Positions 22,225 to 57,639 of a stretch of DNA of 64,000 bases are shown one piece after another. Origin of the DNA: a phage; sequence record OZ336094.1. One strand, written 5' to 3'. Every line of letters starts with the position of its first letter. The stretch's first letter is position 1. The notes beneath the pieces were generated by a model that made no database searches, had not been told where the DNA came from, and worked only from the letters and a program-made list of their open reading frames with translations. Position numbers and translations under genes: made by a program.

Positions 22225-23202
22225 TTAAGCAACAGTCTGGTCTTCTTTTTCAGGGAAGATTAAACTTGCAACAACACCCAACCCAAGAGTACCTAACACA
22301 ATATACATACTGATCGTCGGATCAATGTGTGCTGGCAGGAAACTGACTTTTGCGTGCAGAGTTTCTGCAAACGGGTGATACATCAGTTTTACACCCACAA
22401 ACACCAGGACTACGATAACTGCTTTCTCCAGATGAACCAAATACTTCAGTGCAACACTAAGAACAAAGAACAGAGCACGTAAACCTAAGATTGCACAGAG
22501 CATCGAAGAGAACACCAGTAGAGGTTCTTGTGTCACTGCAATTACTGCTGGAACAGAGTCTACTGCAAAGATTACGTCAACCATTTCCATTACAAACACA
22601 CAAACCAGAGCCGGAGTTGCTACACGAACACCATTTTTGATTGTGAAGAACTTCTCACCATCCATCTGATCAGATACAGGGAACAGCTTACGAACAATGC
22701 GAGTAGCCCAGTGTTTAGAGTAATCAACTTCTGCATCATTATCTCCAGCGAATACCATTTTAGCCGCACAGAAAAGGATGACAGCACCGAAGAAGATATT
22801 AACATACCAGCCCAAACTCAACAAGTAAGTACCTACTGCTACAAACACACCTCGGAAGACAATCGCACCTGCAATACCCCAAAGTAGAATCTTGTGCTGC
22901 AAGTGTGTGCTTTTAATACCAAAACTTGCGAAGACTGCCACAAATACTACTAAGTTATCTACAGAAAGAGATTTCTCCAACACATACCCACTCAAAAACA
23001 AGCTCGCAAAATCAGCACCGTGTTGGAAGTATACAAAACCATAGTAGGCTAATGATACCCCAATCCAGAAAATTGACCAGCCAATTGCAGATTTAAATGA
23101 AATTTCTTTGTTTTCTCTGTGTCCAAAGAAGTCAATACAAATCGACAAGACTAAAATACCCACTAAAACAACCACATCAATAATTGGGAAACCCAGTTGC
23201 AT
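22225..23202 (-). CDS. terC: TerC-family integral membrane protein
   Basis: 325 aa with multiple TM segments; motif EKSLSVDNLVVF matches the conserved TerC signature. Confidence 0.6.
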   Translation of the reverse strand: MQLGFPIIDVVVLVGILVLSICIDFFGHRENKEISFKSAIGWSIFWIGVSLAYYGFVYFQHGADFASLFLSGYVLEKSLSVDNLVVFVAVFASFGIKSTHLQHKILLWGIAGAIVFRGVFVAVGTYLLSLGWYVNIFFGAVILFCAAKMVFAGDNDAEVDYSKHWATRIVRKLFPVSDQMDGEKFFTIKNGVRVATPALVCVFVMEMVDVIFAVDSVPAVIAVTQEPLLVFSSMLCAILGLRALFFVLSVALKYLVHLEKAVIVVLVFVGVKLMYHPFAETLHAKVSFLPAHIDPTISMYIVLGTLGLGVVASLIFPEKEDQTVA

Positions 23203-23219
23203 TCTTTTCTCCTCTTTAA

Positions 23220-23238
23220 TGCGGAGGACAATCCTCCG
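23220..23238 (-). terminator. Hairpin (GCGGAGGA-CAA-TCCTCCGC) between an upstream small gene and terC
   Basis: 8-bp stem; no strong T-run, may be an RNA-stability or attenuator element. Confidence 0.35.
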
Positions 23239-23279
23239 CTCTATGTCTTATACTATAAACTGTTTTTAAAGAAAGTCAA

Positions 23280-44964: not shown

Positions 44965-45180
44965 TATTTTGAAAATTTTTATTTTTATAAAAAGGGGTGT
45001 GGGTTTCATGTACGGAAATTCACCCTCTGCACAGTATATCCAGAGTAAGTAGTATTCTACACCCTGTTAATAAAGTATTTAATTTGTTTGTTGGACTATG
45101 GTATCTGATCTTTAAAAGACATACTATCTCTTAACTACTACTTATAACAGAACAGTAAAATCATTTTTATAAAAAGTACA

Positions 45181-45382
45181 AAATTATTTAAAGTTTTTAC
45201 AGATTTTTGGGTACAAATTTTGAAAATGAAAAGTTCAAGTTTGGTCAAAATTATTTAAAGTTTTTGTACGTATTTCTGTCCAGATTTTGAAAATGAAAAC
45301 TTCAATTTTTTAAAAATTCCCCAGTTTATTTAAAGTTTTTTTGCCTTTTTCCGTAGAAAAATCAAAAATGAAAAGTTCAATT
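45181..45382. repeat. Three imperfect direct repeats of about 66-76 bp, each with TATTTAAAGTTTTT and TTGAAAATGAAAAGTTCAA blocks
   Basis: Seen directly; conserved blocks with 34-37 nt spacing; ORF-free AT-rich DNA. Confidence 0.7.
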
Positions 45383-45401
45383 TCGTGTTTTTATAGGTGT
45401 G

Positions 45402-45515
45402 TTAATGAGAATCATTTTCGTTTGTAAATGAGAATCATTATCATTTAACTATGTAAGTGATAATCATTCTCAGTAAGAGAATGAGAATCATTAGCAAATG
45501 AGAATTTTCTCATTT
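45402..45515. promoter_or_regulatory. Array of five or more palindromic AATGA-GAA-TCATT boxes (Fur-box-like)
   Basis: AATGAGAATCATT x3, GTGATAATCATTCTC, and perfect palindrome ATGAGAATTTTCTCAT; one base from the Fur core AATGATAATCATT. Confidence 0.5.
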
Positions 45516-46417: not shown

Positions 46418-46473
46418 TTGACAACGTTTTTTAATCTGATAAGATGTATCACATAGGGCGGCAATAGTGCCGC
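46418..46473 (+). promoter_or_regulatory. Promoter + 5' stem-loop cassette (TTGACA-N16-TAAGAT; hairpin GCGGCA-ATAG-TGCCGC)
   Basis: Member of repeated cassette family; followed by purine-rich RBS and ATG at 46498. Confidence 0.55.
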
Positions 46474-46497
46474 TCATAACAGAAGAGAGAAATAATC

Positions 46498-46770
46498 ATG
46501 GCATCATATAGCGCATCAATGATCGTAATGGGCATCACTGGTAAACCTATGCGCGGTGGCGGATCTTTCGCTAACATCAATATTGATGGGCGTTTATCCC
46601 TGGATGCAGCGATCACCGTGGCACGGGAAACATTTAAAAAAGAATGTAATTTCAATAAACAAGATTATCTCGGTTTCGCTATTGAAAAAACCGCGCGATT
46701 TGTGGATTATAAAAGCCCGAAAATGATCGACACTACACTAAAAGCGCAAGATGTAGCGTTTTTGCTTTAA
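46498..46770 (+). CDS. Hypothetical small protein, 90 aa
   Basis: Track ORF directly downstream of cassette. Confidence 0.5.
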   Translation: MASYSASMIVMGITGKPMRGGGSFANINIDGRLSLDAAITVARETFKKECNFNKQDYLGFAIEKTARFVDYKSPKMIDTTLKAQDVAFLL

Positions 46771-46773
46771 GTC

Positions 46774-46833
46774 TTGACACTGAAAAATAATTTGGTAATA
46801 TATACTCCATAAGGCGGGAAATGGTTTCCCGCC
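46774..46833 (+). promoter_or_regulatory. Promoter + 5' stem-loop cassette (TTGACA-N16-TAATAT; hairpin GGCGGGAAA-TGG-TTTCCCGCC)
   Basis: 9-bp perfect stem immediately after -10; ATG at 46859. Confidence 0.6.
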
Positions 46834-46858
46834 AGGCCATCAAAGAAAGGGTAACACA

Positions 46859-47221
46859 ATGAGCAAGCAAATCAATACTATCATGTTAAACCTGGTATCT
46901 TTCCGCGACGACGTGAAAAATCTTCCACGTGATGCAGTGGATGCACGGATCGAAAGCTATCGCTCACAGATCGCAACGCTACCGCTAAAACGTGATCAAC
47001 ATGCCGCTAATATGATGCTTAATGCTATGCTTAAAAAGATGATTCAATGTGATCTTACCCTGGCTTATGAATATGCTGGCGATCTCTTTGTAACATATAG
47101 CAAGCCCGTACCAGGTATGAGCACAACGGAAGAATTGCATGCCTTAAATCTGCGACAAGATGCATGGGATAACATGCGCCGTGTTATGGTATGGGTAGAA
47201 AGCGGTAAAATTTACGAATAA
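46859..47221 (+). CDS. Hypothetical small protein, 120 aa
   Basis: Track ORF downstream of cassette. Confidence 0.5.
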   Translation: MSKQINTIMLNLVSFRDDVKNLPRDAVDARIESYRSQIATLPLKRDQHAANMMLNAMLKKMIQCDLTLAYEYAGDLFVTYSKPVPGMSTTEELHALNLRQDAWDNMRRVMVWVESGKIYE

Positions 47222-47227
47222 AAACGG

Positions 47228-47280
47228 TTGACATTGCACTAAAACCTGATAAGCTATCTTAAAGCGGGAATAGTTCCCGC
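47228..47280 (+). promoter_or_regulatory. Promoter + 5' stem-loop cassette (TTGACA; hairpin GCGGGAA-TAG-TTCCCGC)
   Basis: Cassette family member; ATG at 47300. Confidence 0.55.
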
Positions 47281-47299
47281 TTACATAGGATAAAACTTT

Positions 47300-47446
47300 A
47301 TGAAACAATATGTAATGAGTATTCACACCAAAAACGGCGCTACTGTTACGACTCCGGCACGGTTTGCACTTGTAAACCGTTGCAAGAGACTAAAACGAGA
47401 GCTAAAAAACAACCGTGCAACGGGCTTTAAACGCTGGGGAGGATAA
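47300..47446 (+). CDS. Hypothetical small basic protein, 48 aa
   Basis: Hand-translated MKQYVMSIHTKNGATVTTPARFALVNRCKRLKRELKNNRATGFKRWGG; downstream of cassette. Confidence 0.4.
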   Translation: MKQYVMSIHTKNGATVTTPARFALVNRCKRLKRELKNNRATGFKRWGG

Positions 47447-47448
47447 TC

Positions 47449-47709
47449 TTGTTTTTTCTAAAAGTTTTTGATAATGTGATCGCTTTTGAACATGCTGCAA
47501 CGTTCAACCTGGCGAGATACGCTATCAGGTTTAAAGATAATGTTTATCCCCGTGCTGGCGGCGGTTACACTATTTTTAATCATCGCAACGCGCAACTGAC
47601 TGATATAACTAATCCAGATCCGGGAGTGTATCGCATAGGCTGGCTACCGTCAAAAGACGCGGCAAGCATGTTTAAGGTATGTAAACTACTAACAGAAGAG
47701 GCAAATTAG
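47449..47709 (+). CDS. Hypothetical protein, 86 aa, probable TTG start
   Basis: Track ORF without in-frame ATG near start; RBS ggggagga upstream of TTG; uncertain. Confidence 0.3.
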   Translation: MFFLKVFDNVIAFEHAATFNLARYAIRFKDNVYPRAGGGYTIFNHRNAQLTDITNPDPGVYRIGWLPSKDAASMFKVCKLLTEEAN

Positions 47710-47710
47710 C

Positions 47711-48265
47711 ATGGGGCGTGAGTATGTGATCCAGTCCTGGGTAAAGCATGACGCTAATGATCCGCGCATAATACCAGATGACATGATCGATCACATGGTA
47801 GGGTATAGCGGGGAGCAGATAGGAAATCGAGCGGCAAAGAGCAACGGCAACACAAAGGCGCGATCTGTTCGCCCTGGTTGGCTGGCAAATGGTAACGCTG
47901 ACATTGCAAGCGCCGCAGATCCAAGCGATGACGCTAAAAATAATCCCTTATACAGCATTGATCCGGCTTTTAAGGTGTTAGAAGAATATCCCGCTAAATT
48001 AGCCGCACTAGATAAAGCATACGAAGAAAAACGCATGGCATGGACGGTATACAACACCGCTAAAATGGTGCTAGATGCAAAATTGATTAAAGCCCAGGAG
48101 AAGATCAATAAACTTGTTGCAGTAGCGCAAGAGGAAGACCAGGACGACCAGGAGGAAGAGGAAGAAATCATGCCTACCCTGGAAGAGGAAGAGATCCAGC
48201 CATACATGCCGACGGAAGAGGAAAAAAGACAAGCCCTAAAAAATTATGAAAATTGTCTTGTGTAA
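47711..48265 (+). CDS. Hypothetical protein with acidic C-terminal tail, 184 aa
   Basis: Track ORF; poly-Glu/Asp tract (EEDQDDQEEEEE). Confidence 0.5.
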   Translation: MGREYVIQSWVKHDANDPRIIPDDMIDHMVGYSGEQIGNRAAKSNGNTKARSVRPGWLANGNADIASAADPSDDAKNNPLYSIDPAFKVLEEYPAKLAALDKAYEEKRMAWTVYNTAKMVLDAKLIKAQEKINKLVAVAQEEDQDDQEEEEEIMPTLEEEEIQPYMPTEEEKRQALKNYENCLV

Positions 48266-48267
48266 GG

Positions 48268-48323
48268 CTTGACATATGCGAACAAGCCCCGTAATATGTA
48301 CCACATAAAGCGGGGCAACGCCC
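48268..48323 (+). promoter_or_regulatory. Promoter (TTGACA-N17-TAATAT) + short hairpin (GGGGC-AAC-GCCCC)
   Basis: Cassette variant; a second promoter TTGACA-N16-TATAAT lies at about 48346-48373. Confidence 0.5.
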
Positions 48324-48345
48324 CATAAGGTGAAATAAAAAATCA

Positions 48346-48373
48346 CTTGACACCTGAAATCAGTAAGCTATAA
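48346..48373 (+). promoter_or_regulatory. Sigma70 consensus promoter TTGACA-N16-TATAAT
   Basis: Exact -35 and -10 hexamers. Confidence 0.6.
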
Positions 48374-48411
48374 TGCTTATATAGATTGAAACATGACTAA
48401 GGAATAAAAGC

Positions 48412-48591
48412 ATGGCTATTATTGCAAAGACTGAGATCGTAGGTTTAGATTCTATCATCCTGGCATATGAGGAAGCTATAGAAATGTATGTGGTTTCCTA
48501 TGGTGATTATATCCGTGAATATAAATCTATTGATCTAGCTTTTGAATGCTATATTCGCCAGGTCAATAAAGCATATGATGATTATCGTTAA
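48412..48591 (+). CDS. Hypothetical small protein, 59 aa
   Basis: Hand-translated MAIIAKTEIVGLDSIILAYEEAIEMYVVSYGDYIREYKS...; downstream of consensus promoter. Confidence 0.45.
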   Translation: MAIIAKTEIVGLDSIILAYEEAIEMYVVSYGDYIREYKSIDLAFECYIRQVNKAYDDYR

Positions 48592-48610
48592 AAGTTTTAG
48601 TCTTGTGCTA

Positions 48611-48639
48611 TTGACAACGAACGATAGTACAAGCATAAT
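48611..48639 (+). promoter_or_regulatory. Sigma70-like promoter TTGACA-N17-CATAAT
   Basis: Exact -35; no hairpin in leader. Confidence 0.5.
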
Positions 48640-48686
48640 AACTTTTATCGGGAATACTCCTAACTAATCAAAAGAGATTAAAGACT

Positions 48687-49052
48687 ATGGCTAAAAATAT
48701 CAATGTTTCTGCTTATGCTACCCTGGCTAACACTGCTAAAATTGAACTATCCAGCATTGAAGCGGTACATATTAGCGCCCGTCGCTGGTTTCAAAAGTCT
48801 TATGGTAATACTTATTTCTCTTTGATGGTTGACGTTGAGATCGGCGGTAAACTGATTGAAGTCGTTAACGTTCCGTTTCAATATGGTTATGGTGATCATT
48901 TTGATACCGTTGCCCTAGAAGAGTTTAGCAAGGTTATCAACCTGGAAGGTAAAGAGTTTTCAAATTATGCATACCTTTCCCGTTTTTGCCGTGATAATGG
49001 GATCGCTGTATACAGTCATGCAAGCGATGTTAAACGTAAAAAAGATTTATAA
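48687..49052 (+). CDS. Hypothetical protein, 121 aa
   Basis: Track ORF. Confidence 0.5.
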   Translation: MAKNINVSAYATLANTAKIELSSIEAVHISARRWFQKSYGNTYFSLMVDVEIGGKLIEVVNVPFQYGYGDHFDTVALEEFSKVINLEGKEFSNYAYLSRFCRDNGIAVYSHASDVKRKKDL

Positions 49053-49058
49053 AAAGCA

Positions 49059-49116
49059 TTGACAGCACGAATAAAAAGCATATAATACTTATATCGAGAG
49101 CGGGAATAGTTCCCGC
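49059..49116 (+). promoter_or_regulatory. Promoter + 5' stem-loop cassette (TTGACA-N16-TATAAT; hairpin GCGGGAA-TAG-TTCCCGC)
   Basis: Exact consensus hexamers; cassette family. Confidence 0.6.
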
Positions 49117-49140
49117 CTCACTGAAAAAGAGATTAACATC

Positions 49141-49380
49141 ATGGCTAAATCTAAAATGTTCTTAGGTCACAAAAACAAAACTCATTGGAATGTAAGCCTT
49201 TGGATCAACAACGATGAAGGTTTTTATAATCTTGCGCGTGAATTTATCGCAGCTAACACCAATAAGAATGACGCAGCGCGGGATATGATGTTATTTCTTG
49301 AAAGTATGGATCAAGATAAAACGCCAGACGGATTCAAGTTCAGTAAAACCGCGATCCGTGCCGCTATGGTTGGAATGTAA
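49141..49380 (+). CDS. Hypothetical small protein, 79 aa
   Basis: Track ORF downstream of cassette. Confidence 0.5.
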   Translation: MAKSKMFLGHKNKTHWNVSLWINNDEGFYNLAREFIAANTNKNDAARDMMLFLESMDQDKTPDGFKFSKTAIRAAMVGM

Positions 49381-49475
49381 AGGAGGTATAAAAATGAAAC
49401 ATCGTTCGACCTATCTCACAAAACGTTTTAGCTTAGATCATAAGTTAGGCTATTACGGAAGAAATAGAAAATAAT

Positions 49476-49535
49476 TTGACACTGTTTAAAATTCTGGTAT
49501 AGTTTATCACATAGGGCGGGAAATGGTTTCCCGCC
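49476..49535 (+). promoter_or_regulatory. Promoter + 5' stem-loop cassette (TTGACA-N16-TATAGT; hairpin GGCGGGAAA-TGG-TTTCCCGCC)
   Basis: Cassette family. Confidence 0.6.
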
Positions 49536-49557
49536 AAATCAAAGAAAGGTTATCATT

Positions 49558-49785
49558 ATGGCTATCGTTATTGTTCGCGTATCCGGTACGGTTGGAAGCT
49601 CCCAGGTAGTAGCAGTTATCACAGAGAAGAAAGGGGATGATCTTCACTCCTCCTTGAATAGCTGGGCGGTCGCTAACTTTGGGCAATGGTCGAGCGTTGA
49701 GTACATCGAATCCTACCAGGTGCCAACGATTAGCCTAACCGATCTAAATGTTGATCGCTTGTTGTGCCTGGATCAATTAAACTAA
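49558..49785 (+). CDS. Hypothetical small protein, 75 aa
   Basis: Track ORF downstream of cassette. Confidence 0.5.
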   Translation: MAIVIVRVSGTVGSSQVVAVITEKKGDDLHSSLNSWAVANFGQWSSVEYIESYQVPTISLTDLNVDRLLCLDQLN

Positions 49786-49793
49786 AAATAATA

Positions 49794-49849
49794 TTGACAA
49801 GATAACTAAAATCAGTAAAATGTAATGCATAGGGCGGCAATAGTGCCGC
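49794..49849 (+). promoter_or_regulatory. Promoter + 5' stem-loop cassette (TTGACA-N16-TAAAAT; hairpin GCGGCA-ATAG-TGCCGC)
   Basis: Cassette family. Confidence 0.55.
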
Positions 49850-49872
49850 TCCTAGTGAGAGAGATTATCAAG

Positions 49873-50088
49873 ATGGCTAATATCCGCACACTGTTAAAAA
49901 ATGCAAGTCAAGTTTTATTTTCAGATGACGAGTATTTCAACAAAGACATTACAGGCGTGAAAAATTTAAAAGACGTGAAGGATGTTATCGGTATCCGTGG
50001 ATCTTTACGTAAAGGTGACATATACGGTAACAAGGTGCAATATAAACTGTCAAAAGATTATGATTTTACTTTGACATTTATTTCATAA
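49873..50088 (+). CDS. Hypothetical small protein, 71 aa (start refined)
   Basis: Track ORF 49825 start lies inside the 5' hairpin; ATG at 49873 follows purine-rich RBS. Confidence 0.5.
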   Translation: MANIRTLLKNASQVLFSDDEYFNKDITGVKNLKDVKDVIGIRGSLRKGDIYGNKVQYKLSKDYDFTLTFIS

Positions 50089-50094
50089 AACCGC

Positions 50095-50155
50095 TTGCAA
50101 TACTGCAAAAATAAAGTAAACTGTATTCATCAAGGCGGTGGAATAGCCCACCGCC
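50095..50155 (+). promoter_or_regulatory. Promoter-like (TTGCAA-N16-TAAACT) + 5' stem-loop (GGCGGTGG-AATAGC-CCACCGCC)
   Basis: Cassette variant. Confidence 0.45.
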
Positions 50156-50178
50156 TAACAAAGAGAAGAGGAAACATC

Positions 50179-50349
50179 ATGATCACTTTCGCTACCCGTG
50201 AAGCCGCTCGCAACGTTGCACGTAAAGTTAACGCCGCCAACCTGGGCGCTACGCTTAAAGCCCCGGTAAAAGATGAATCAGGTAAATGGATCTTCCCTGG
50301 TCTGCGTCACGCTGATAAGCTGGGAACGTTAACGCTAAAAAATAAATAA
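50179..50349 (+). CDS. Hypothetical small protein, 56 aa (start refined)
   Basis: ATG at 50179 after RBS agaggaaac; track start at 50095 lies in promoter. Confidence 0.45.
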   Translation: MITFATREAARNVARKVNAANLGATLKAPVKDESGKWIFPGLRHADKLGTLTLKNK

Positions 50350-50356
50350 AATCCGC

Positions 50357-50415
50357 TTGACAGTAGCATCATTTATAAGTAAAGTAACAACAACGGCGGG
50401 AAATGGTTTCCCGCC
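50357..50415 (+). promoter_or_regulatory. Promoter + 5' stem-loop cassette (TTGACA-N17-TAAAGT; hairpin GGCGGGAAA-TGG-TTTCCCGCC)
   Basis: Cassette family. Confidence 0.6.
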
Positions 50416-50435
50416 ATCAATAAAGAGATAAGATC

Positions 50436-50795
50436 ATGAAATCAGTAAAAGCAATTAAAACTTACATTGTGTCGGCTATTTCTTTTGATGGTACTACAAC
50501 CGAAAAAGAAAAGATCACCGAACTGATGCGCCGTTTTAACTCTGAATACTGGTATCCCGATAATCAAAAACGTTACAATTATAACGTGATCAAGGCGATA
50601 GCCTCATGGTTACAAGGTTTACCGTCAGACATTAACATCGCCTTTGATTATAACGAGATTGATCATTTATTAATTGAATGGAAGTACATAAAAGAAACAA
50701 GCAAAGAAACAACCGTTACCCGTGAGCGGGAAAATTATTGGTTATATATTGCAAGCATGATCGTAATCCTGGCAAAACAGCATAACGTGGCGTAA
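50436..50795 (+). CDS. Hypothetical protein, 119 aa
   Basis: Track ORF downstream of cassette. Confidence 0.5.
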   Translation: MKSVKAIKTYIVSAISFDGTTTEKEKITELMRRFNSEYWYPDNQKRYNYNVIKAIASWLQGLPSDINIAFDYNEIDHLLIEWKYIKETSKETTVTRERENYWLYIASMIVILAKQHNVA

Positions 50796-50810
50796 TTAAG
50801 AGGAAGAAAC

Positions 50811-50948
50811 ATGAACGCATCACAGCAGATCGAAAAATTCAACCGCAGCAAGGCGCGTAAAGATTGGAACGAAGAGATCACCAAAAAAGGCGACAAGCGG
50901 AACAAAACAAAGAGAGATCGCAGCACAAAAAGATACTGGAACGAATAA
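50811..50948 (+). CDS. Hypothetical small basic protein, 45 aa
   Basis: Hand-translated MNASQQIEKFNRSKARKDWNEEITKKGDKRNK...; RBS agaggaag; followed by terminator. Confidence 0.35.
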   Translation: MNASQQIEKFNRSKARKDWNEEITKKGDKRNKTKRDRSTKRYWNE

Positions 50949-50949
50949 C

Positions 50950-50980
50950 AAAAAAGGGCGCAATAAGCGCCCTTTTAGCT
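50950..50980 (+). terminator. Intrinsic terminator (AGGGCGC-AATAA-GCGCCCT + T-run)
   Basis: Same stem as terminators at about 55167 and 56319. Confidence 0.6.
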
Positions 50981-51067
50981 TATATAGAGGCTTGTTACCC
51001 ATAGGCAATGGTAACGCCAGGATAAGCCTATAAATCAACGTTAGACGGCTTTACAGGAGCTTTAAAA

Positions 51068-51250
51068 ATGAAATTAGACGAAATAAGCAAGGCACTAGCC
51101 CAGGGGCAAAGGTTATGCGCCCGATATCGTGATCAATATGGCTTCATAACTAGCGGCGTGATCCTGGGGATTGAAGGCAATAAGATTTTTATTGACACGT
51201 TGAAAAACGTTGTATATAGTGACAATATAATCTCAATAAAACATATATGA
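51068..51250 (+). CDS. Hypothetical small protein, 60 aa
   Basis: Track ORF. Confidence 0.45.
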   Translation: MKLDEISKALAQGQRLCARYRDQYGFITSGVILGIEGNKIFIDTLKNVVYSDNIISIKHI

Positions 51251-51258
51251 GGCAAGAA

Positions 51259-51660
51259 ATGAAAAAATTATTGATCGCTGGTTTAATCTCTTTTGGCATG
51301 GTTGGAACATCTAGCGCGGCGATATCCTCCACAGTAGCAGAATTAAGCGCCGTTGATGCAATGGAAAACGTCATGCTTATTAATAATGCGATCCCCGATG
51401 AAATCATGGAGGATTCACACATGATCGCTTATGGTGCTGTTACACAACTAACGGCAAAAATAGATAAATCTATTGTTAACGGCTTAAATGAAGATGTGCC
51501 ATGTGAAATTATTACCAGTGTGCTGACTACTCAAAATTTTACGCCGTGGTTAAAAAGTATTCAAAAAGTACACAGTACAGCCGCAGATCGTAGCAATGAA
51601 AAACTAGTGTCAGCACTTGCAACGTATACCCTAGCAAAATGCACCGAGATAAAAGATTGA
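51259..51660 (+). CDS. Hypothetical secreted protein, 133 aa (start refined)
   Basis: Signal peptide MKKLLIAGLISFGMVGTSSAA; RBS tgaggcaag. Confidence 0.5.
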   Translation: MKKLLIAGLISFGMVGTSSAAISSTVAELSAVDAMENVMLINNAIPDEIMEDSHMIAYGAVTQLTAKIDKSIVNGLNEDVPCEIITSVLTTQNFTPWLKSIQKVHSTAADRSNEKLVSALATYTLAKCTEIKD

Positions 51661-51685
51661 CAACATAGAAAGCACGTTATAAGAT
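51657..51685 (+). promoter_or_regulatory. Sigma70-like promoter TTGACA-N17-TAAGAT
   Basis: Exact -35; RBS aaggag follows. Confidence 0.5.
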
Positions 51686-51707
51686 ACACACAACAAAGGA
51701 GAACTAC

Positions 51708-52010
51708 ATGAACGGCATAGCTAAAACGTTTTTTCTTTTTTCTGGTGTAAATGATCCATCAATAAAAGTCGATAGTGTAAAAGAAAACAATACTATCACC
51801 GCTAAATTGTTTCAAGATGAAACAAATAACGTGCTAATCATTAATCTTAAAGAAATAACGAAAGGTTATTATACTATTGCTTACCATGCAATCTATCGTG
51901 CTGGTACTAGTGAGGAAGTGCAAACAAGCAACAACGAAAGCGCGGCACTACCTGGTGATCTGGTGCTGGGCGTTATCAGTTTAATTGTCAATGATTTTTT
52001 TAAGGAGTAA
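51708..52010 (+). CDS. Hypothetical protein, 100 aa
   Basis: Track ORF; RBS aaggag. Confidence 0.5.
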   Translation: MNGIAKTFFLFSGVNDPSIKVDSVKENNTITAKLFQDETNNVLIINLKEITKGYYTIAYHAIYRAGTSEEVQTSNNESAALPGDLVLGVISLIVNDFFKE

Positions 52011-52014
52011 AACC

Positions 52015-52110
52015 ATGCCCTATTTACATTTATTTTTCGGTATCTTATTGACAGGATCTTTTTTCTTCTGTATGCTTGTTTCTATTGTAAACCACGTTTT
52101 AAGACATTAA
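52015..52110 (+). CDS. Hypothetical small hydrophobic peptide, 31 aa
   Basis: Hand-translated MPYLHLFFGILLTGSFFFCMLVSIVNHVLRH; RBS aaggag. Confidence 0.35.
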   Translation: MPYLHLFFGILLTGSFFFCMLVSIVNHVLRH

Positions 52111-52119
52111 GGAAACAGC

Positions 52120-52239
52120 ATGAAAATTATTCCCGTACAATATAGCGTAATAAATCCAGCATACGAGGAAGGAAGGAAAACAAGCATGGCTTTATGTTGT
52201 ATTGCTACTATAGCCATGTTGTTATACATTGTGTTTTAA
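52120..52239 (+). CDS. Hypothetical small peptide with hydrophobic C-terminus, 39 aa
   Basis: Hand-translated MKIIPVQYSVINPAYEEGRKTSMALCCIATIAMLLYIVF; RBS aaggaaa. Confidence 0.3.
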   Translation: MKIIPVQYSVINPAYEEGRKTSMALCCIATIAMLLYIVF

Positions 52240-52268
52240 TAGGTTTTATAGTTGTACGCTTTAAAGGC

Positions 52269-52296
52269 TTGACAATTTTTTGTTATGCTTTAAACT
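52269..52296 (+). promoter_or_regulatory. Sigma70-like promoter TTGACA-N16-TAAACT
   Basis: Exact -35. Confidence 0.5.
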
Positions 52297-52339
52297 ATAT
52301 CTTGAAAACGGCAAAGGCCGCAAACAAAAGGGTAAAATT

Positions 52340-52663
52340 ATGAAATCTGTGATCGGTGTTTATTTGGATAACTCTGATTTTTTCTATCATCGCGCGCGTT
52401 TACTTGATGCTATTGAAATGATAGAATCAGGCTTTAAAGAGTATCGCCTTGCACATGATGACCTGGAAGCATTACAGGGCAATAGTGTTTTTACATTGCA
52501 AGCGAAAGCACTATGCAAAAGCCGGATCGAGATTGCAAGTAAAAAGATACAACGCGGCATGTCCTGGTTGCGCACCGCAGAAATCAACATGGGGCAATGG
52601 TACGGCGAAAACTTAGAAAATAAACGCACTTTTGTAAATGTAGAAAATCTTAAAGATTATTGA
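52340..52663 (+). CDS. Hypothetical protein, 107 aa (start refined)
   Basis: ATG at 52340 after RBS aaaagggtaaaatt. Confidence 0.5.
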   Translation: MKSVIGVYLDNSDFFYHRARLLDAIEMIESGFKEYRLAHDDLEALQGNSVFTLQAKALCKSRIEIASKKIQRGMSWLRTAEINMGQWYGENLENKRTFVNVENLKDY

Positions 52664-52725
52664 TTGACAGCACACCTAACAGATAGTATATTGTATCTCA
52701 TAGAGCGGGGAAATGGTTTCCCCGC
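52664..52725 (+). promoter_or_regulatory. Promoter + 5' stem-loop cassette (TTGACA-N17-TATATT; hairpin GCGGGGAAA-TGG-TTTCCCCGC)
   Basis: Cassette family. Confidence 0.6.
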
Positions 52726-52745
52726 CTTAACAGAAGAGATAAGCT

Positions 52746-53030
52746 ATGAAGATCACAAAAGCACTTTCCAACTATGCAGCACGTCGCGGATTATGTTTAA
52801 CCGTTGAAAATTTAGGGAAAGAAGATTTTTTGTGCTTTTGGGAGCTTGAGAATGATAATGAGTGGATCTTCTCTTATTCTATCTGCGAAGATCAAAACGG
52901 TTGTTTATTAACCTGGCGCGGTAATATCTATCTACCGGAAGAAATCAAAGAAGAATTACCAGGCACGATCATGACTGAGAAACAGCTTAAGGAAGTGATC
53001 AATTTTGTAGGGCAAAACATTAAAAAATAA
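52746..53030 (+). CDS. Hypothetical protein, 94 aa
   Basis: Track ORF downstream of cassette. Confidence 0.5.
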   Translation: MKITKALSNYAARRGLCLTVENLGKEDFLCFWELENDNEWIFSYSICEDQNGCLLTWRGNIYLPEEIKEELPGTIMTEKQLKEVINFVGQNIKK

Positions 53031-53031
53031 T

Positions 53032-53091
53032 TTGACACTAGGCAAACAACGTAGTAAAGTTTATCACATAGGGCGGGAAATGGTTTCCCGC
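53032..53091 (+). promoter_or_regulatory. Promoter + 5' stem-loop cassette (TTGACA-N17-TAAAGT; hairpin GCGGGAAA-TGG-TTTCCCGC)
   Basis: Cassette family. Confidence 0.6.
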
Positions 53092-53114
53092 TCACAACAG
53101 AAGAGAAACAAATC

Positions 53115-53285
53115 ATGATCCCAACTATGTTTTATGTATCGCGCAAAGGTCACAATATTTTTTGGTCTGAAGATTTAAATGAAGCCATGACGTTTGCCCG
53201 TGATCGTGTTGCTATCGGTGGCGTTAACATTACTGTAACCGATGAAAACGGCATTGAATACTATAACGGCGACGATGAAGAGTAA
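53115..53285 (+). CDS. Hypothetical small protein, 56 aa
   Basis: Hand-translated MIPTMFYVSRKGHNIFWSEDLNEAMTFARDRVAIGG...; downstream of cassette. Confidence 0.45.
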   Translation: MIPTMFYVSRKGHNIFWSEDLNEAMTFARDRVAIGGVNITVTDENGIEYYNGDDEE

Positions 53286-53292
53286 TTAATAA

Positions 53293-53313
53293 GGCGGGGG
53301 AGTATTCCCCGCC
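53293..53313 (+). promoter_or_regulatory. 5' stem-loop of cassette type without recognisable -35 (GGCGGGGGA-GTA-TTCCCCGCC)
   Basis: Same hairpin family; may mark an RNA processing or stability site. Confidence 0.45.
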
Positions 53314-53332
53314 GTCAATAAAGAGGTAAATC

Positions 53333-53602
53333 ATGAAAATATCTTTGGACGTTGCAATCAAGGCCATTGAATCCGGTTACACCCTGGTAAAAGATGATAA
53401 GGCTAAAACCGTGCACCACGTTAACAAGGAAACAGGCGAAAGCATGATCACATATAAAACCGCCTATTTTCTCCAATCAGTAGCAGATCCGCGCGTACAA
53501 CGCCAGGTTACGGCGGCTATTGCTAAAAAATTATGTGCTTTACAGGGTACAAGTTTTAACGAGATCGCCCCGTGTTTTGACTGGTCGAGCTTGAAAAAAT
53601 AG
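53333..53602 (+). CDS. Hypothetical protein, 89 aa
   Basis: Track ORF. Confidence 0.5.
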   Translation: MKISLDVAIKAIESGYTLVKDDKAKTVHHVNKETGESMITYKTAYFLQSVADPRVQRQVTAAIAKKLCALQGTSFNEIAPCFDWSSLKK

Positions 53603-53603
53603 T

Positions 53604-53659
53604 TTGACAACAATTATAAATCGGGTAGAATGTATTTCGTAGGGCGGCAATAGTGCCGC
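53604..53659 (+). promoter_or_regulatory. Promoter + 5' stem-loop cassette (TTGACA-N16-TAGAAT; hairpin GCGGCA-ATAG-TGCCGC)
   Basis: Cassette family. Confidence 0.6.
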
Positions 53660-53682
53660 TCACAACTAAAAGAGAAATCAGC

Positions 53683-53877
53683 ATGGCGCTTAAAAAACTA
53701 ACAAGCAATACTCGTTGGGATGAAATCGACGGAGAAGTTTACATTTTCGCCCGTAAACCAGGTGATCAAAAATGGTCAAAGGCTTTTACTTGCCACCCTG
53801 CAACAATAGACCTGATAAAAAGGGAAGGTTTACGTGAAGCGGTAGCAAGAAGTTTACTGATCCCTTATAAAAAATAG
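53683..53877 (+). CDS. Hypothetical small protein, 64 aa (start refined)
   Basis: ATG at 53683; track start lies in hairpin. Confidence 0.5.
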   Translation: MALKKLTSNTRWDEIDGEVYIFARKPGDQKWSKAFTCHPATIDLIKREGLREAVARSLLIPYKK

Positions 53878-53878
53878 T

Positions 53879-53940
53879 TTGACAATACGCGGTTATCTGG
53901 TAAAGTGTACGACATAGGGCGGGGCAATAAGGCAACGCCC
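53879..53940 (+). promoter_or_regulatory. Promoter + 5' stem-loop cassette (TTGACA-N16-TAAAGT; hairpin GGGCG...CGCCC)
   Basis: Cassette family, divergent loop. Confidence 0.5.
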
Positions 53941-53958
53941 ATTAATGAGGGTAGAATC

Positions 53959-54063
53959 ATGTTAGAGAAAATTTTCACGGTTGTAATAGTTGGCCTGGCG
54001 TTATCGGTTGGATTGGTTGCAACTATGGCTAACATGATCCTATCTTCCCACGGTATTGGATAA
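53959..54063 (+). CDS. Hypothetical small membrane peptide, 34 aa
   Basis: Hand-translated MLEKIFTVVIVGLALSVGLVATMANMILSSHGIG; downstream of cassette. Confidence 0.4.
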   Translation: MLEKIFTVVIVGLALSVGLVATMANMILSSHGIG

Positions 54064-54073
54064 GGTGAATCAA

Positions 54074-54289
54074 ATGATCACGAATAAGACAGGTAAAACA
54101 GAATTTTTACGCGGCTTGCAAATAGGTAAACCTGAGATCTGGCATTGCACTAAATCCGCGCATAATGAAATGAAAGATTTTACCGCTACTTTACAACGTG
54201 TTAAAATATCTATCACGCAGAAAAAAGCCTTGTTAGTAGTAGAAAACGAGATACCGCAAACCATTATTATTGTCGAGCGTACAGCATGA
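54074..54289 (+). CDS. Hypothetical small protein, 71 aa (start refined)
   Basis: ATG at 54074; track start 54056 is TTG. Confidence 0.45.
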   Translation: MITNKTGKTEFLRGLQIGKPEIWHCTKSAHNEMKDFTATLQRVKISITQKKALLVVENEIPQTIIIVERTA

Positions 54290-54672
54290 AAACTGAAATC
54301 ATTATTGAAATCATCAACGGTTATAAAGAAGCCTTTATTTTTGCTGAATCAGCCAGGGATCATGAAGGCTATTTTATTGATAACTTAGACGATTATGATT
54401 TTTCAGATCAAGCCCATCAGCGGATCATTCATGACGTAGCGGCTTATTGTGATGCCAATGATGCTGCTATCTCTGAGGCAATGAGCGACGGCGCTACAGC
54501 AAACCAGATCGGGAATGATTTACATTTTACCCGTAACGGTCACGGCGTAGGCTTTTGGGATCGCCCTGAAATATACACTACTAACACCGCCAACCGCCTA
54601 ACAAATGCAGCTAAATTAATGCCATCGGTGCATGCTTACATTGGTGAAGATAATTTGATTTATATTGAATAA
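54286..54672 (+). CDS. Hypothetical acidic protein, 128 aa
   Basis: Track ORF; ATGA overlap with upstream gene. Confidence 0.5.
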   Translation: MKTEIIIEIINGYKEAFIFAESARDHEGYFIDNLDDYDFSDQAHQRIIHDVAAYCDANDAAISEAMSDGATANQIGNDLHFTRNGHGVGFWDRPEIYTTNTANRLTNAAKLMPSVHAYIGEDNLIYIE

Positions 54673-54678
54673 AAAGTA

Positions 54679-54737
54679 TTGACACCGATCCCCAATATGT
54701 TATTATTTACCACGTAGGCGGGAAATGGTTTCCCGCC
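54679..54737 (+). promoter_or_regulatory. Promoter + 5' stem-loop cassette (TTGACA-N16-TATTAT; hairpin GGCGGGAAA-TGG-TTTCCCGCC)
   Basis: Cassette family. Confidence 0.6.
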
Positions 54738-54760
54738 AGGTAATCAAAAAGGTAAATACT

Positions 54761-55150
54761 ATGCGCAACCTGGTTTCTGTTTCTAACGTTGAAAAATTCC
54801 AATCTTTACAGGGTATCGTTAACAACGTAGCGCCTTTTTTAATCAATGGCTTGATTGCAAAGATGAAAAATAAACATCATGCGGCATGGTCTGCTTACTG
54901 CTTTGATAATGATGAAAAAGCGGCTGAAATGATGTTAAATATGCTGTTAGACAGTGTAGAATCATCTTTACCGGAAAACATCGCAGAAGAGATCACCTAT
55001 CGTTATAATATGGCGATCACTTACCAGGAGGTTGCGCAATTTAATATGATGGATGATGACGAACAACAGGATCAGGAAATGTTCTGGGAGTATGCAGATC
55101 GTCAATCGGCTTTTGATGAAAAGTTAGCGATGTATTATAACGAATATTAA
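54761..55150 (+). CDS. Hypothetical protein, 129 aa (start refined)
   Basis: ATG at 54761 after cassette; track start 54725 lies inside hairpin. Confidence 0.5.
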   Translation: MRNLVSVSNVEKFQSLQGIVNNVAPFLINGLIAKMKNKHHAAWSAYCFDNDEKAAEMMLNMLLDSVESSLPENIAEEITYRYNMAITYQEVAQFNMMDDDEQQDQEMFWEYADRQSAFDEKLAMYYNEY

Positions 55151-55162
55151 TACACGGTAAAA

Positions 55163-55192
55163 GAAAGGGGCGCACTAAGCGCCCTTTTTTGT
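55163..55192 (+). terminator. Intrinsic terminator (GGGGCGC-ACTAA-GCGCCCC + T6)
   Basis: Strong GC stem and tttttt. Confidence 0.65.
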
Positions 55193-55534
55193 ATTCTTTT
55201 TCACAATGGAAGCGACACGTAAAGAATAGGCGTAAAGGTGGCGTAAAACCATCTAAAACCGACTGTAACCGCTTAAACAAGGTAGGAATGATTAATCACC
55301 TTACCAGGATGAAAAAGCTGTTATAAAGCTATCTAGAGCGTTTAAAGCACATAGGAAATAATTTGCTTTTTATCTTGCCTTTTATCCTGCTTTTGATTAT
55401 TATTATGGAACGGGCGGCACCTGGGGACAGGGGAAGATAATCACCGGAAGATCCCGCTATATATTAATAGCTAATATCTATCAAACAACAAAACATCAAA
55501 GGAATAAACTATCAAATCTTTACAATCCTACCTA

Positions 55535-55594
55535 TTGACACCGGATCGCCCTTATACTAAGATGTATCACGTAAGGCGGGAAGTGGTTTCCCGC
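55535..55594 (+). promoter_or_regulatory. Promoter + 5' stem-loop cassette (TTGACA-N17-TAAGAT; hairpin GGCGGGAAG-TGG-TTTCCCGC)
   Basis: Cassette family. Confidence 0.55.
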
Positions 55595-55613
55595 TCAATA
55601 TAGGAATCATATC

Positions 55614-55844
55614 ATGATCGAACAAATTAAACGCGCTGAAGCTATTAACGGCAATGTGATCTATTCTGTCAGCAATAACGAAAAAGGCGTACCCTATGCA
55701 GCGGTGATAGTACAGCCTGACGGTGATTATTGGTTTACTGTATACGGATCTTATTCTTTTGGGCGTCCAGTACATGATAAAATTTTGAAAGTAGCTAATC
55801 CCACTGGGAAGAATATCACAGCAGAAAAATTTTATAAAAAATAG
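55614..55844 (+). CDS. Hypothetical small protein, 76 aa
   Basis: Track ORF downstream of cassette. Confidence 0.5.
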   Translation: MIEQIKRAEAINGNVIYSVSNNEKGVPYAAVIVQPDGDYWFTVYGSYSFGRPVHDKILKVANPTGKNITAEKFYKK

Positions 55845-55919
55845 CTTGCTTTATTTCTTCTGTTAACTTATAGTTATCGCGTAGGGCAAACAATTTTAAA
55901 CGGTAAACGAGGAATCACC

Positions 55920-56303
55920 ATGAGCAATATCATCAACCTGGCGGCTACTGTAAACGGTAAAGACTTTAACGGCGCTGTAGACCGTGATCCTATGTGGTGC
56001 TTATCAGTGTTTAAAGGCGATCTGGTTGAAGTTAGAACAACCGAAGGGTATAGCGATGATTATAAATGCGAGATCCATTTACACAACTGGTACACGGGTA
56101 AAACTTATGCGCTGAATCATGCGTTTATCGGCAAGGTTGAATATAGAGAAATGATCGACGAAGAAACGGGGCAAGATTTTAGCGAGCATGTTTATATTCG
56201 TTCCGAGACATTAGCCGAACGTTTGATCGAGAAAATGAAAGCAAAAAATAAAATTAATTTAACTCATTGGATTGATATAACAAACGATCCTGCTTATCAG
56301 TAA
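55920..56303 (+). CDS. Hypothetical protein, 127 aa
   Basis: Track ORF; RBS acgaggaat. Confidence 0.5.
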   Translation: MSNIINLAATVNGKDFNGAVDRDPMWCLSVFKGDLVEVRTTEGYSDDYKCEIHLHNWYTGKTYALNHAFIGKVEYREMIDEETGQDFSEHVYIRSETLAERLIEKMKAKNKINLTHWIDITNDPAYQ

Positions 56304-56316
56304 ATAACATTTCATA

Positions 56317-56346
56317 CCAGGGCGCACAAAGCGCCCTTTCTTTTTA
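56317..56346 (+). terminator. Intrinsic terminator (AGGGCGC-ACAAA-GCGCCCT + T-run)
   Basis: Same stem as 50955 and 55167 terminators. Confidence 0.6.
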
Positions 56347-56548
56347 CCTAAATAAAGATGATAGCTTTTACCTATCAAGAACGTTCACCGAAAAAAGTGA
56401 ATAGATCGCGGTATCGAGCTAATCAAGGAGCAGATGAACAACCATACCATGAAGATCATAAGGCGCTTACAGCGTGTTTTAGACCGCTTATTTTTAATTT
56501 CTTCATGCAACTATCTGGCAAAAACAGCCTTTTTCTCATCTTTCCTCT

Positions 56549-56626
56549 TAAATGATAATCATTCTTATTTATAGCTGATTATTTATGCAATAAACTGCAT
56601 AATGCAATAATGATAATCATTCTTAA
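56549..56626. promoter_or_regulatory. Two exact AATGATAATCATT palindromes (Fur-box core) in an ORF-free AT-rich region
   Basis: ttaaATGATAATCATTcttat and caataATGATAATCATTcttaa. Confidence 0.5.
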
Positions 56627-56986
56627 CTTAAGACCATCTAACTTATAAAATAATAAGTTATCTAACTAAATTAAAGCTAATTATCTTACTTTTATTTATA
56701 ACATACTGTTACTATCTTATTGATAACTTTATATTAAACAACAATAATCAATGTAAATCATTACTAAGCTAACTATAATCTATCTAACCCTTAAAACTAT
56801 AACTATAATCTATCGAATTGTTGCACAAAGTAACTATTAAATTGTTAGTAACATTGCTAAATAATTAATATCCTATCTATTTATGATCTAATCTTTACCT
56901 TCCTATTTATCACCTAACTAATCATTCCATATAGTAATCATTTCATACAATAACTATAACAAGAAATATAATTCGCAAGCGTATCA

Positions 56987-57182
56987 TTAGCAGCCTATGC
57001 CGGACACATAGGCGGCTAATAATAACGCAACTACACACCCCACATAATAACCATCACCGATAGTCATTATTTGTGCTTATGTAGCTTGCAACAACTGCAA
57101 GCGCAACAATATACAATTGTATATTGTATCCCTTACATTGTTGCGGTGCGTTATTATTAGCTAATGTTTAGAACATTGGCTA
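56987..57182. repeat. Cluster of three long palindromes in a roughly 1.4-kb non-coding region
   Basis: TTAGCAGCCTATG-N7-CATAGGCGGCTAA; perfect 20-bp palindrome CAATATACAATTGTATATTG; TAGCTAATGTT-TAG-AACATTGGCTA. Confidence 0.7.
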
Positions 57183-57465
57183 TAATATAAGCTAAATAAT
57201 AAGCTATACAATAATAAACATCGTGAATAATGATGCTGATGATCATAATGCGCCACCTTCCAGGGGGGCGCTATGTGAACACAAAGAAATCTTTCTTGTC
57301 AAGAAAAATATTAACACTATTGCGCAAAATTATTTATATATGAATAGATGGTTTTTCATACTATTGCCCCCATATAGCCTATCATTTGTTGAGCCTACTT
57401 TCTTAAAAGCGCAATAAATCAGAATTATCTTGATTTTTAGGGCGTTTTATAGTACAGAAAATATG

Positions 57466-57487
57466 CAAATGATAATCATTATCAGCT
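57466..57487. promoter_or_regulatory. Near-consensus Fur box (gcAAATGATAATCATTATCagc)
   Basis: 17 of 19 positions match GATAATGATAATCATTATC. Confidence 0.5.
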
Positions 57488-57639
57488 ATCTTCCACGGGT
57501 GGCACTATTTCACGCCAGATCATTTCATTTGGCAAGGTGTATATAGATGTTTAGACTTGCCAAGCCATTGATTTACTTAGAATTTATCTGTTTTGTTGTG
57601 AGTAGTACCTTTCTTGCTCAGAAAATAATCAAAAGTCTT

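Follow-up and report, generated by a model that had tools for sequence, protein, structure and literature searches.

A repeated promoter, hairpin and ribosome-binding-site cassette in the small-gene array of a phi92-like phage and its relatives

Promoter-early stem-loops (PeSLs) have been described in the T4-type phages RB49/phi1, PST and nt-1, where stem-loops of five subclasses precede the transcription start and are assigned a terminator or attenuator role (Arbiol et al. 2010, PMC2839356; Comeau et al. 2014, PMC4122927); terminator activity has been reported for one of them (PMC2839356). Here, a module of ∼80 bp comprising a promoter, a GC-rich hairpin and a ribosome-binding site (RBS), repeated ahead of small genes, is described in a 64,000-nucleotide stretch of phage DNA (record OZ336094.1), referred to throughout as the window. 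Between positions 46400 and 55600 the window is 99.9% identical, as the reverse complement, to Escherichia phage Paula (LR865361.1), a phi92-like Justusliebigvirus of the Stephanstirmvirinae; 288 phage records match this segment, many at 95-99% identity, with alignments split into several pieces. On balance it is probable that the module is an early expression cassette whose 5′ hairpin stabilises or insulates the message, and whose repetition enables a PeSL-like shuffling of genes.

Stem-loops at the very 5′ end of a message are known from the Escherichia coli ompA 5′ untranslated region (UTR) and from the T7 phi10 leader used in pET vectors, both of which stabilise mRNA with measured effects on half-life. 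These leaders share with the present element a stable hairpin that lies within a few nucleotides of the 5′ terminus and precedes an open RBS; they are single cases, however, whereas ∼16 repeats occur here, the predicted unpaired leader of 3-8 nt stands at the upper limit, and the effect is a predicted one. The host-takeover module of Bacillus phage SPO1, reportedly described by Stewart and colleagues in 1998 within the terminal redundancy, is also said to hold dense small early genes near a genome end, divided into many short units that each carry a strong host-type promoter and an RBS. SPO1 is not known to have a shared hairpin element, the phages and hosts are unrelated, and early timing in the present case is a prediction. 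Resemblances to T7-type promoters (CACATAGGG versus CACTATAGGG), the RfaH ops element (GGCGGTAG), the rrn/lambda boxA (GCUCACAACA, behind some hairpins), repetitive extragenic palindromic (REP) elements and Hin/Gin recombination sites were dropped on inspection of the sequences, because the matches are partial, are present in some copies only, or call for a partner protein not known in these phages.

Anatomy and distribution of the cassette

The phage holds a repeated promoter, hairpin and RBS expression cassette that is found lineage-wide. Reading of the sequence, together with scans, confirmed the module that an original prediction had described in this region, including all three of the hairpin variants quoted there. 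Each module runs from the stop codon of the upstream gene through a TTGACA −35 element, a 16-17 nt spacer, a −10 element, ∼10 nt of further sequence, the GC hairpin, and an A-rich leader with a weak Shine-Dalgarno sequence to the ATG; the intergenic regions that bear it measure 78-90 nt. An A-rich stretch contains the upstream stop codon, which is 0-9 nt away from the −35. The −10 element is of the TAnnnT type, with a TG extension in five copies, and the consensus between it and the hairpin is gTATCACATAG. In the 14 copies measured, the gap from −10 to hairpin is 6-13 nt, with a mode of 10, and the ATG follows the hairpin at a distance of 17-25 nt, the Shine-Dalgarno sequence within this leader being of the GAGA/AAGG type. 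The individual features are as follows, the first coordinate of each numbered cassette being the start of its −35 element.

46418..46497, + strand: cassette 1, TTGACA-16-TAAGAT, hairpin 46456-46475 (GGGCGGCA-ATAG-TGCCGCTC), RBS, gene 46498-46770; E=1.2e-7
46774..46858, + strand: cassette 2, TTGACA-16-TAATAT, hairpin 46813-46833 (GGCGGGAAA-TGG-TTTCCCGCC), gene 46859-47221; scan, fold, covariance model
47228..47299, + strand: cassette 3, TTGACA-16-TAAGCT, hairpin 47262-47282 (AAGCGGGAA-TAG-TTCCCGCTT), three-gene operon 47300-48265; E=8e-4
48269..48411, + strand: cassette 4, weak hairpin 48312-48324 (GGGGC-AAC-GCCCC), second perfect promoter 48347-48374 without hairpin, gene 48412-48591; E=0.1
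48611..48686, + strand: promoter-only unit, TTGACA-17-CATAAT, hairpin remnant only, gene 48687-49052; scan
49059..49140, + strand: cassette 5, TTGACA-16-TATAAT, hairpin 49100-49116 (GCGGGAA-TAG-TTCCCGC), gene 49141-49380; scan, fold, covariance model
49476..49557, + strand: cassette 6, TTGACA-16-TATAGT (TG-extended), hairpin 49515-49535, gene 49558-49785; E=5.5e-15
49794..49872, + strand: cassette 7, TTGACA-16-TAAAAT, hairpin 49832-49851 (GGGCGGCA-ATAG-TGCCGCTC), gene 49873-50088; scan, fold, covariance model
50095..50178, + strand: cassette 8, TTGCAA-16-TAAACT, hairpin 50133-50156 (AGGCGGTGG-AATAGC-CCACCGCCT), gene 50179-50349; E=1e-3
50357..50435, + strand: cassette 9, TTGACA-17-TAAAGT, hairpin 50395-50415, genes 50436-50948; scan, fold, covariance model
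50952..50976, both strands: bidirectional intrinsic-terminator-like hairpin, GGGCGC-AATAA-GCGCCC, A/T runs on both sides, closing the first cassette block
51657..51707, + strand: promoter-only unit, TTGACA-17-TAAGAT, no hairpin, gene 51708-52010; scan
52269..52339, + strand: promoter TTGACA-16-TAAACT with only a 4-bp mini-hairpin, gene 52340-52663; E=0.035
52664..52745, + strand: cassette 10, TTGACA-17-TATATT, hairpin 52705-52725 (GCGGGGAAA-TGG-TTTCCCCGC), gene 52746-53030; scan, fold, covariance model
53032..53114, + strand: cassette 11, TTGACA-17-TAAAGT, hairpin 53071-53093, gene 53115-53285; scan, fold, covariance model
53293..53332, + strand: promoter-less hairpin and RBS, hairpin 53293-53313 (GGCGGGG-GAGTATT-CCCCGCC) right after the stop codon, gene 53333-53602; E=1.4e-3
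53604..53682, + strand: cassette 12, TTGACA-16-TAGAAT, hairpin 53642-53661, gene 53683-53877; scan, fold, covariance model
53879..53958, + strand: cassette 13, TTGACA-16-TAAAGT, interrupted hairpin 53917-53940, heading operon 53959-54672; E=4e-3
54679..54760, + strand: cassette 14, TTGACA-16-TATTAT, hairpin 54717-54737, gene 54761-55150; scan, fold, covariance model
55162..55190, + strand: canonical intrinsic terminator, GGGGCGC-loop-GCGCCC and T6; terminator scan
55535..55613, + strand: cassette 15, TTGACA-17-TAAGAT, hairpin 55575-55595 (with G.U), gene 55614-55844; scan, fold, covariance model
55846..55919, + strand: degenerate copy, TTGCTT-17-TATAGT, leader CGTAGGGC kept, hairpin lost, gene 55920-56303; scan
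56319..56337, + strand: canonical intrinsic terminator at the end of the array; terminator scan
23202..23279, − strand: outlying full cassette, TTGACT-16-TATAGT, hairpin 23221-23240 (GCGGAGGA-TTG-TCCTCCGC), −35 at 23279; E=3.5e-11

The 15 full copies on the + strand, which extend from 46418 to 55613, and the single full copy on the minus strand together bear out the predicted number of about 16. An exact TTGACA, which had been claimed of the module in general, is present in 14 of the 15 + strand copies, the one at 50095 having TTGCAA. The claim that almost every small gene is preceded by the module proved too strong, since a full module stands before ∼15 of the 30 array genes, the remainder being translationally coupled members of short operons or genes served by a promoter without a hairpin. 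Sites resembling the promoter at 10 or more of 12 positions number 21 on the + strand of the region versus two on its minus strand. The minus-strand cassette at 23202-23279 is the sole copy outside the array; it sits amid a block of metabolism and stress-protein genes, and the product of the gene that it precedes is given in the Paula record as a membrane-bound tellurium-resistance protein.

A covariance model trained on eight copies, with the hairpin supplied as structure, found the eight remaining window copies at E = 1e-7 to 4e-3, the next-best matches in the window outside the array reaching only E = 0.12 and 0.82. Applied to Paula, the model returned only the same copies from 1-50 kb and 50-86 kb, and no match below E = 0.066 from 86-136 kb. 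No Rfam 15 family matched at its gathering score across the whole window, and a relaxed threshold gave just three chance-level matches (E>0.4) between 44.8 and 58.2 kb.

The likeness to the T4-type PeSLs that had been proposed for the module holds in kind. Both are modules of ∼70-100 bp in which the AT-rich end of an upstream gene is followed by a consensus or, in the present case, near-consensus sigma70 promoter, a GC stem-loop, a Shine-Dalgarno sequence and an ATG. The two kinds of module recur many times within a plastic region, ahead of small genes whose function is not known, and in both the gain, loss and replacement of genes among close relatives is bounded by the modules. The likeness does not extend to hairpin placement or to homology. 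In the RB49 hyperplastic region the stem-loop was located either within the promoter spacer (TTGACAggggatcaccgatccccTATAAT) or overlapping the −10, the stretch inspected containing a single downstream case, whereas the hairpin described here always lies ∼10 nt past the −10, in the 5′ UTR, lacks a T-run and keeps one fixed geometry. Searched against the same region with filters off, the cassette covariance model gave a best score of 22 bits (E = 0.047), which is not significant, and the phages concerned belong to the Stephanstirmvirinae and Vequintavirinae as opposed to the Straboviridae. Since neither a stem-loop ahead of the transcription start nor sequence homology to the RB49/phi1 elements was found, the cassette, which would resemble a PeSL as a handle for recombination and a portable promoter, appears to be an independent variant whose hairpin has shifted to the 5′ UTR.

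Modules built in this way were also found in phi92, ECGD1, muut, PD114, ZYD and three IMG/VR contigs, in Citrobacter phage Tr1, Klebsiella phage phi1_175008 and rV5, and in Pectobacterium phage POP18 and Enterobacter phage F2M1E (Certrevirus). The cassette is thereby conserved across two phage subfamilies, Vequintavirinae and Stephanstirmvirinae, and its matches in these relatives are always on the gene strand. Their stems vary (GGCGGCA-AUGG-UGCCGCC, GCGGGGAA-AUGG-UUCCCCGC and GGGGCG-ACAAG-CGCCCC, for example), while a CAYRTAGG leader, an apical AAURGU and a GCGG base are seen repeatedly. With one cassette as the query, BLAST matched only rV5/phi92-type phages, and in IMG/VR a locus search gave three loci and a pattern scan gave eight stretches on seven contigs, five of them of ∼150 kb; in these searches the element is confined to one group of ∼150-kb myoviruses.

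Promoters of the form TTGACA-N15-17-TATAAT have been predicted in the homologous small-gene array of rV5 (Kropinski et al. 2013, PMC3606486, Table S4). They are of the same class as those of the cassette, and one of them, P174, coincides with a cassette match; the sequences in Table S4 end 7 nt past the −10, and the hairpin and composite repeat are unmentioned (PMC3606486). In the region examined, the phi92 record annotates genes, ribosome-binding sites, one signal peptide and a terminal repeat, with neither promoters nor hairpins. No earlier description of the cassette in rV5/phi92-type phages was found in the literature searched, a search outside which the phi92 genome paper (PMC3457257) lies.

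The genes of the array, ∼30 of which are annotated in Paula as small hypothetical genes on the window + strand, had been called ORFans. This is roughly right: a PHROG scan assigned 27 of 28 array proteins to families, and of these 27 one is a small membrane protein and the rest are of unknown function. The product of gene 53333-53599 was the one protein of the 28 scanned to which no PHROG family was assigned. In rV5 (NC_011041, 15805-28545), several small array genes are annotated as similar to RB49 hypothetical proteins, and small genes may thus be exchanged between the two phage groups.

Structure and likely role of the hairpin

The hairpins have stems of 6-10 bp and folding energies of −12.8 to −18.7 kcal/mol, with a weak exception at 48269 (−8.7); z-scores range from −1.4 to −4.8 and mostly lie between −3 and −4.8, and the RBS and start codon are unpaired in the folds. 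The core consists of GCGG, two to five variable pairs, a loop of 3-6 nt, and CCGC. These two tetramers, the invariant base of the stem, are separated by 8-13 nt depending on the copy, and the pairs above them vary in a compensatory manner, the first position being G-C, C-G, U-A or A-U and the second and third A-U or G-C. Alignment of full cassettes with MAFFT, followed by RNAalifold, recovered three pairs only, since stems of unequal length left the 3′ arms out of register; a model-based alignment of 86 distinct copies from eight sources (the window and seven loci) was used instead. In this alignment, whose counts are to be read as upper bounds, 93.6% of cells are paired compared with 81.5±0.8% in shuffles, compensatory cells number 73 compared with 23±7.6, and changes on both sides occur in eight of nine pairs. 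The covariation score is 0.224, falling to at most 0.073 when the partners are slid, and a separate anchored count gave 83 canonical cells compared with 64±3.2. The direction of the covariation is clear despite the inflation of these counts.

A stem of variable length with covarying arms favours a folded single strand over an operator of fixed spacing. That the palindrome instead works in double-stranded DNA, as the operator of a dimeric repressor over +1 or as a cruciform or recombination site, with its transcription incidental, is highly improbable. Half-sites 8-13 nt apart with compensatory inner arms are not what would be expected of a sequence-specific dimer, even though an inverted repeat at this place would occupy the usual repressor position; similarly, the arms are short for cruciform extrusion, despite a clustering of recombination breakpoints at or near the hairpins and the annotation of a resolvase/invertase-family gene in Paula outside the window (Paula 6363-7025). 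The orientation of the repeat relative to the gene is, moreover, strictly kept. Indeed, this constant orientation towards promoter and gene in every phage is a stronger strand argument than that from wobble pairs, which is weak: in the independent hairpin set G.U pairs number 10 compared with 14 A.C.

The favoured reading is that host sigma70 RNA polymerase would treat each copy as a self-contained early-gene expression cassette, initiating from a near-consensus and often TG-extended promoter placed after A-rich sequence shared in part with the end of the gene before it. Transcription is expected to start ∼3-5 nt before the 6-10 bp GC hairpin, such that every transcript would open with a stable stem-loop and continue through an unstructured A-rich leader, with its weak Shine-Dalgarno sequence, to the ATG. 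With the start predicted 7 nt past the −10, the unpaired leader is 3-5 nt long (CAUA or AUA) in most copies, and up to 8 nt, so that the hairpin would belong to the 5′ UTR; this predicted UTR is ∼45 nt in length, and the hairpin forms its first structure and ends just outside the ribosome footprint. Acting in RNA, the hairpin would shield the 5′ end from RppH and 5′-end-dependent RNase E, would insulate the RBS from upstream sequence in read-through transcripts, and would not serve as a terminator. Studies of mRNA decay in E. coli, involving 5′-end-dependent RNase E, RppH, ompA and T7 phi10, show that such hairpin geometry can protect a message. By analogy, the geometry described here plausibly suits protection of the mRNA 5′ end (for background on mRNA decay, see PMC3014915), and a stabilising or insulating role is the most likely one for the hairpin as judged from its sequence and placement. 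The promoter-less copy at 53293 fits a hairpin role that is independent of local initiation.

A terminator or attenuator acting on upstream transcripts, as put forward and assayed for one stem-loop of the RB49/phi1 PeSLs, with each gene then forming its own unit, is a rather more distant prospect and seems quite unlikely. The terminator scan found no T-run on the + strand after any cassette hairpin, the tails being A-rich, and the hairpin thus lacks the directly adjoining T-run by which intrinsic (rho-independent) terminators are recognised. Its position is also at odds with this role, since it lies downstream of the promoter, 45-50 nt past the stop codon, and not between the two, although the promoter-less copy at 53293 does stand directly behind a stop codon. 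The array has, in addition, a separate class of terminators, GGGCGC-loop-GCGCCC with a T-run, distinct from the cassette hairpins: the only canonical terminators on the + strand are those at 55162-55190 and 56319-56337, to which the bidirectional hairpin at 50952-50976 may be added. The reported terminator activity of one PeSL stem-loop lends the idea some support, as does the Paula record, in which cassette hairpins between 46813 and 55595 are labelled as terminators (PAULA_TERMINATOR_010 and 012-020). However, these features lie mostly on the strand opposite to the genes, where a few cassette hairpins do score as terminators because the leader there reads TTATG; this accounts for the labels, which look like prediction artefacts.

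Several points weigh against the proposed stabilising or insulating cassette. The transcription start is predicted from the −10 alone, and 3-8 unpaired nucleotides reportedly lie at the edge of known 5′-end protection in experiments of the Emory/Belasco type, a stabilising stem-loop being expected within ∼2-4 unpaired nt of the primary 5′ end. Five strong promoters within the array, among them those at 48347, 48611, 51657 and 52269, work without a full hairpin. The covariation counts are inflated, because the alignment was fitted to the model and includes orthologues, and the wobble pairs of that alignment on the gene strand (31 G.U compared with 18 A.C/C.A) favour that strand only weakly and are no proof of an RNA-level role. 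Lastly, the AAURGU apex and GCGG/CCGC base are conserved beyond the need of a pure stability element, which hints at specific recognition.

This last point bears on a further explanation, namely that the hairpin is bound by a phage or host factor, be it an RNA-binding protein or one that recognises single-stranded DNA hairpins. Such a factor would turn the early units off (or on) as a set, for example by repressing translation, by directing cleavage to the hairpin or by modifying the polymerase close to the promoter. The apex AAT(A/G)GT is kept in 13 of 17 window copies, while the pairs between it and the invariant base change; the pre-hairpin leader CA(C/T)(A/G)TAGG is conserved from Escherichia to Pectobacterium phages, and the position is fixed relative to both promoter and ATG. 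Such conservation could feasibly reflect recent common descent of paralogous copies, however, and loops in several copies are unrelated (TTG, GTA, AAC, ACAAG and ACT); no candidate binding protein was identified and no Rfam family matches, such that the explanation is considered unlikely, if less so than termination. The proposal that the GCGG/CCGC base, AAURGU apex and CAYRUAGG leader together form a recognition tag of an early regulon across Vequintavirinae and Stephanstirmvirinae is likewise an unlikely one. Were it true, a dedicated factor would read the tag to stabilise, silence or process all early transcripts together, and the tag would travel with each gene upon cassette recombination.

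Proposed exchange of genes between cassettes

Most transcription units of this region near the genome end have the ∼80-bp module at their flanks. The cassettes, whatever the role of their hairpins, thereby offer homology for recombination, by which whole genes may be inserted, deleted or replaced along with the signals that express them, much as has been suggested for PeSLs. Many insertions and deletions are seen in the array region between genomes that are otherwise 95-99% identical. The window was aligned with eight relatives, and the junctions at which colinearity is lost were collected. Of 41 distinct breakpoints, 32 fall within a cassette ±10 nt, compared with an expectation of 22.6% from the share of the region occupied by cassettes (binomial p ∼8e-14), and breakpoints at 46456, 49095, 49114, 49837, 53652, 53659 and 54736 lie at or near hairpins. 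The enrichment must in part reflect survivorship, or selection against breaks within genes, since viable insertions and deletions of whole genes need intergenic ends and nearly all intergenic DNA here is cassette; to that extent it counts less towards the favoured reading.

A direct signature of cassette-mediated exchange is provided, at the level of sequence comparison, by duplicated flanks. Insertions in ECGD1, muut and ZYD have duplicated cassettes on both sides, and the extra genes of ECGD1 and ZYD have duplicates of cassettes 5 and 11 at their flanks, with junctions at 49150|49080, 49114|49074 and 53117|53022 and cassette matches on both sides. In phi92, the gene behind cassette 14 has been replaced from the hairpin onwards (54736|55519). 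Gene 49141-49380 shares 81.5% identity with its ECGD1 counterpart, the flanks sharing 94-95%, and gene 48412-48591 is missing from six of the eight relatives, the loss ending at two start-codon regions. The original suggestion of a role in recombination thus finds comparative support in the breakpoints and duplicated flanking cassettes, and the element was kept in related phages while the genes between cassettes were gained, lost or swapped.

Seven cassette genes (46498, 48412, 48687, 49141, 49558, 49873 and 53683) begin with ATGGCT, encoding Met-Ala. The recurrent deletion of gene 48412-48591 in relatives ends exactly at two such starts (48418|48687), and the presumed homology for exchange thus reaches a few bases into the coding sequence.

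Genomic setting and significance

The array heads away from a divergent, open reading frame (ORF)-poor region at 44.9-46.4 kb, and genes for a T7-like primase/helicase and DNA polymerase lie to its left on the opposite strand. Alignment with phi92 placed the 343-bp direct terminal repeat of that phage at ∼57.39-57.73 kb, which puts the end of the array ∼1.4 kb from the physical genome end. The repeat is held within an AT-rich stretch of 1.7 kb (56348-58055) that has no annotated gene and represents the physical genome end; a 'non-coding' box was likewise remarked upon in rV5 (PMC3606486). Upstream of the array, the divergent ORF-poor region holds two copies of a 67-bp tandem repeat (45179-45309, 82% identical), at a place equivalent to which repeat regions are annotated in the muut record. 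Five Fur-box-like sites, with three or fewer mismatches to GATAATGATAATCATTATC, were found at 45401, 45424, 45477, 56606 and 57465 (spanning 45401-45495 and 56606-57483), compared with 0.01 expected by chance, all within the two ORF-poor regions on either side of the cassette array. Such sites stand at equivalent places in phi92, where one is within the terminal repeat, and in muut, Citrobacter Tr1 and a Klebsiella phage, whereas a further 86 kb of Paula that was inspected contains none; iron-regulated promoters or Fur titration sites could account for them. Two records filed as Campylobacter phages A145 and A110a (MG065645 and MG065689) are ∼95% identical to these coliphages across the array, and phage ZYD (PQ110661), filed as a Vequintavirus, is nonetheless 96.5% identical here to Justusliebigvirus genomes; the host or taxonomy labels of these records look doubtful.

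Collections of phages for therapy and biocontrol commonly include rV5- and phi92-like members. About a fifth of each such genome consists of small genes without a known function, among which genes for host takeover and anti-defence are likely. The cassette gives a rule for locating the starts of early transcription units, corrects database entries that call the hairpins terminators on the wrong strand, and explains the turnover of the small-gene set among otherwise near-identical phages. It also represents a compact natural promoter and 5′ UTR part, the hairpin function of which is directly testable. More broadly, the principle embodied by the PeSLs, of repeated regulatory modules as handles for recombination, would appear to have arisen in a second, unrelated phage lineage with the stem-loop placed differently.

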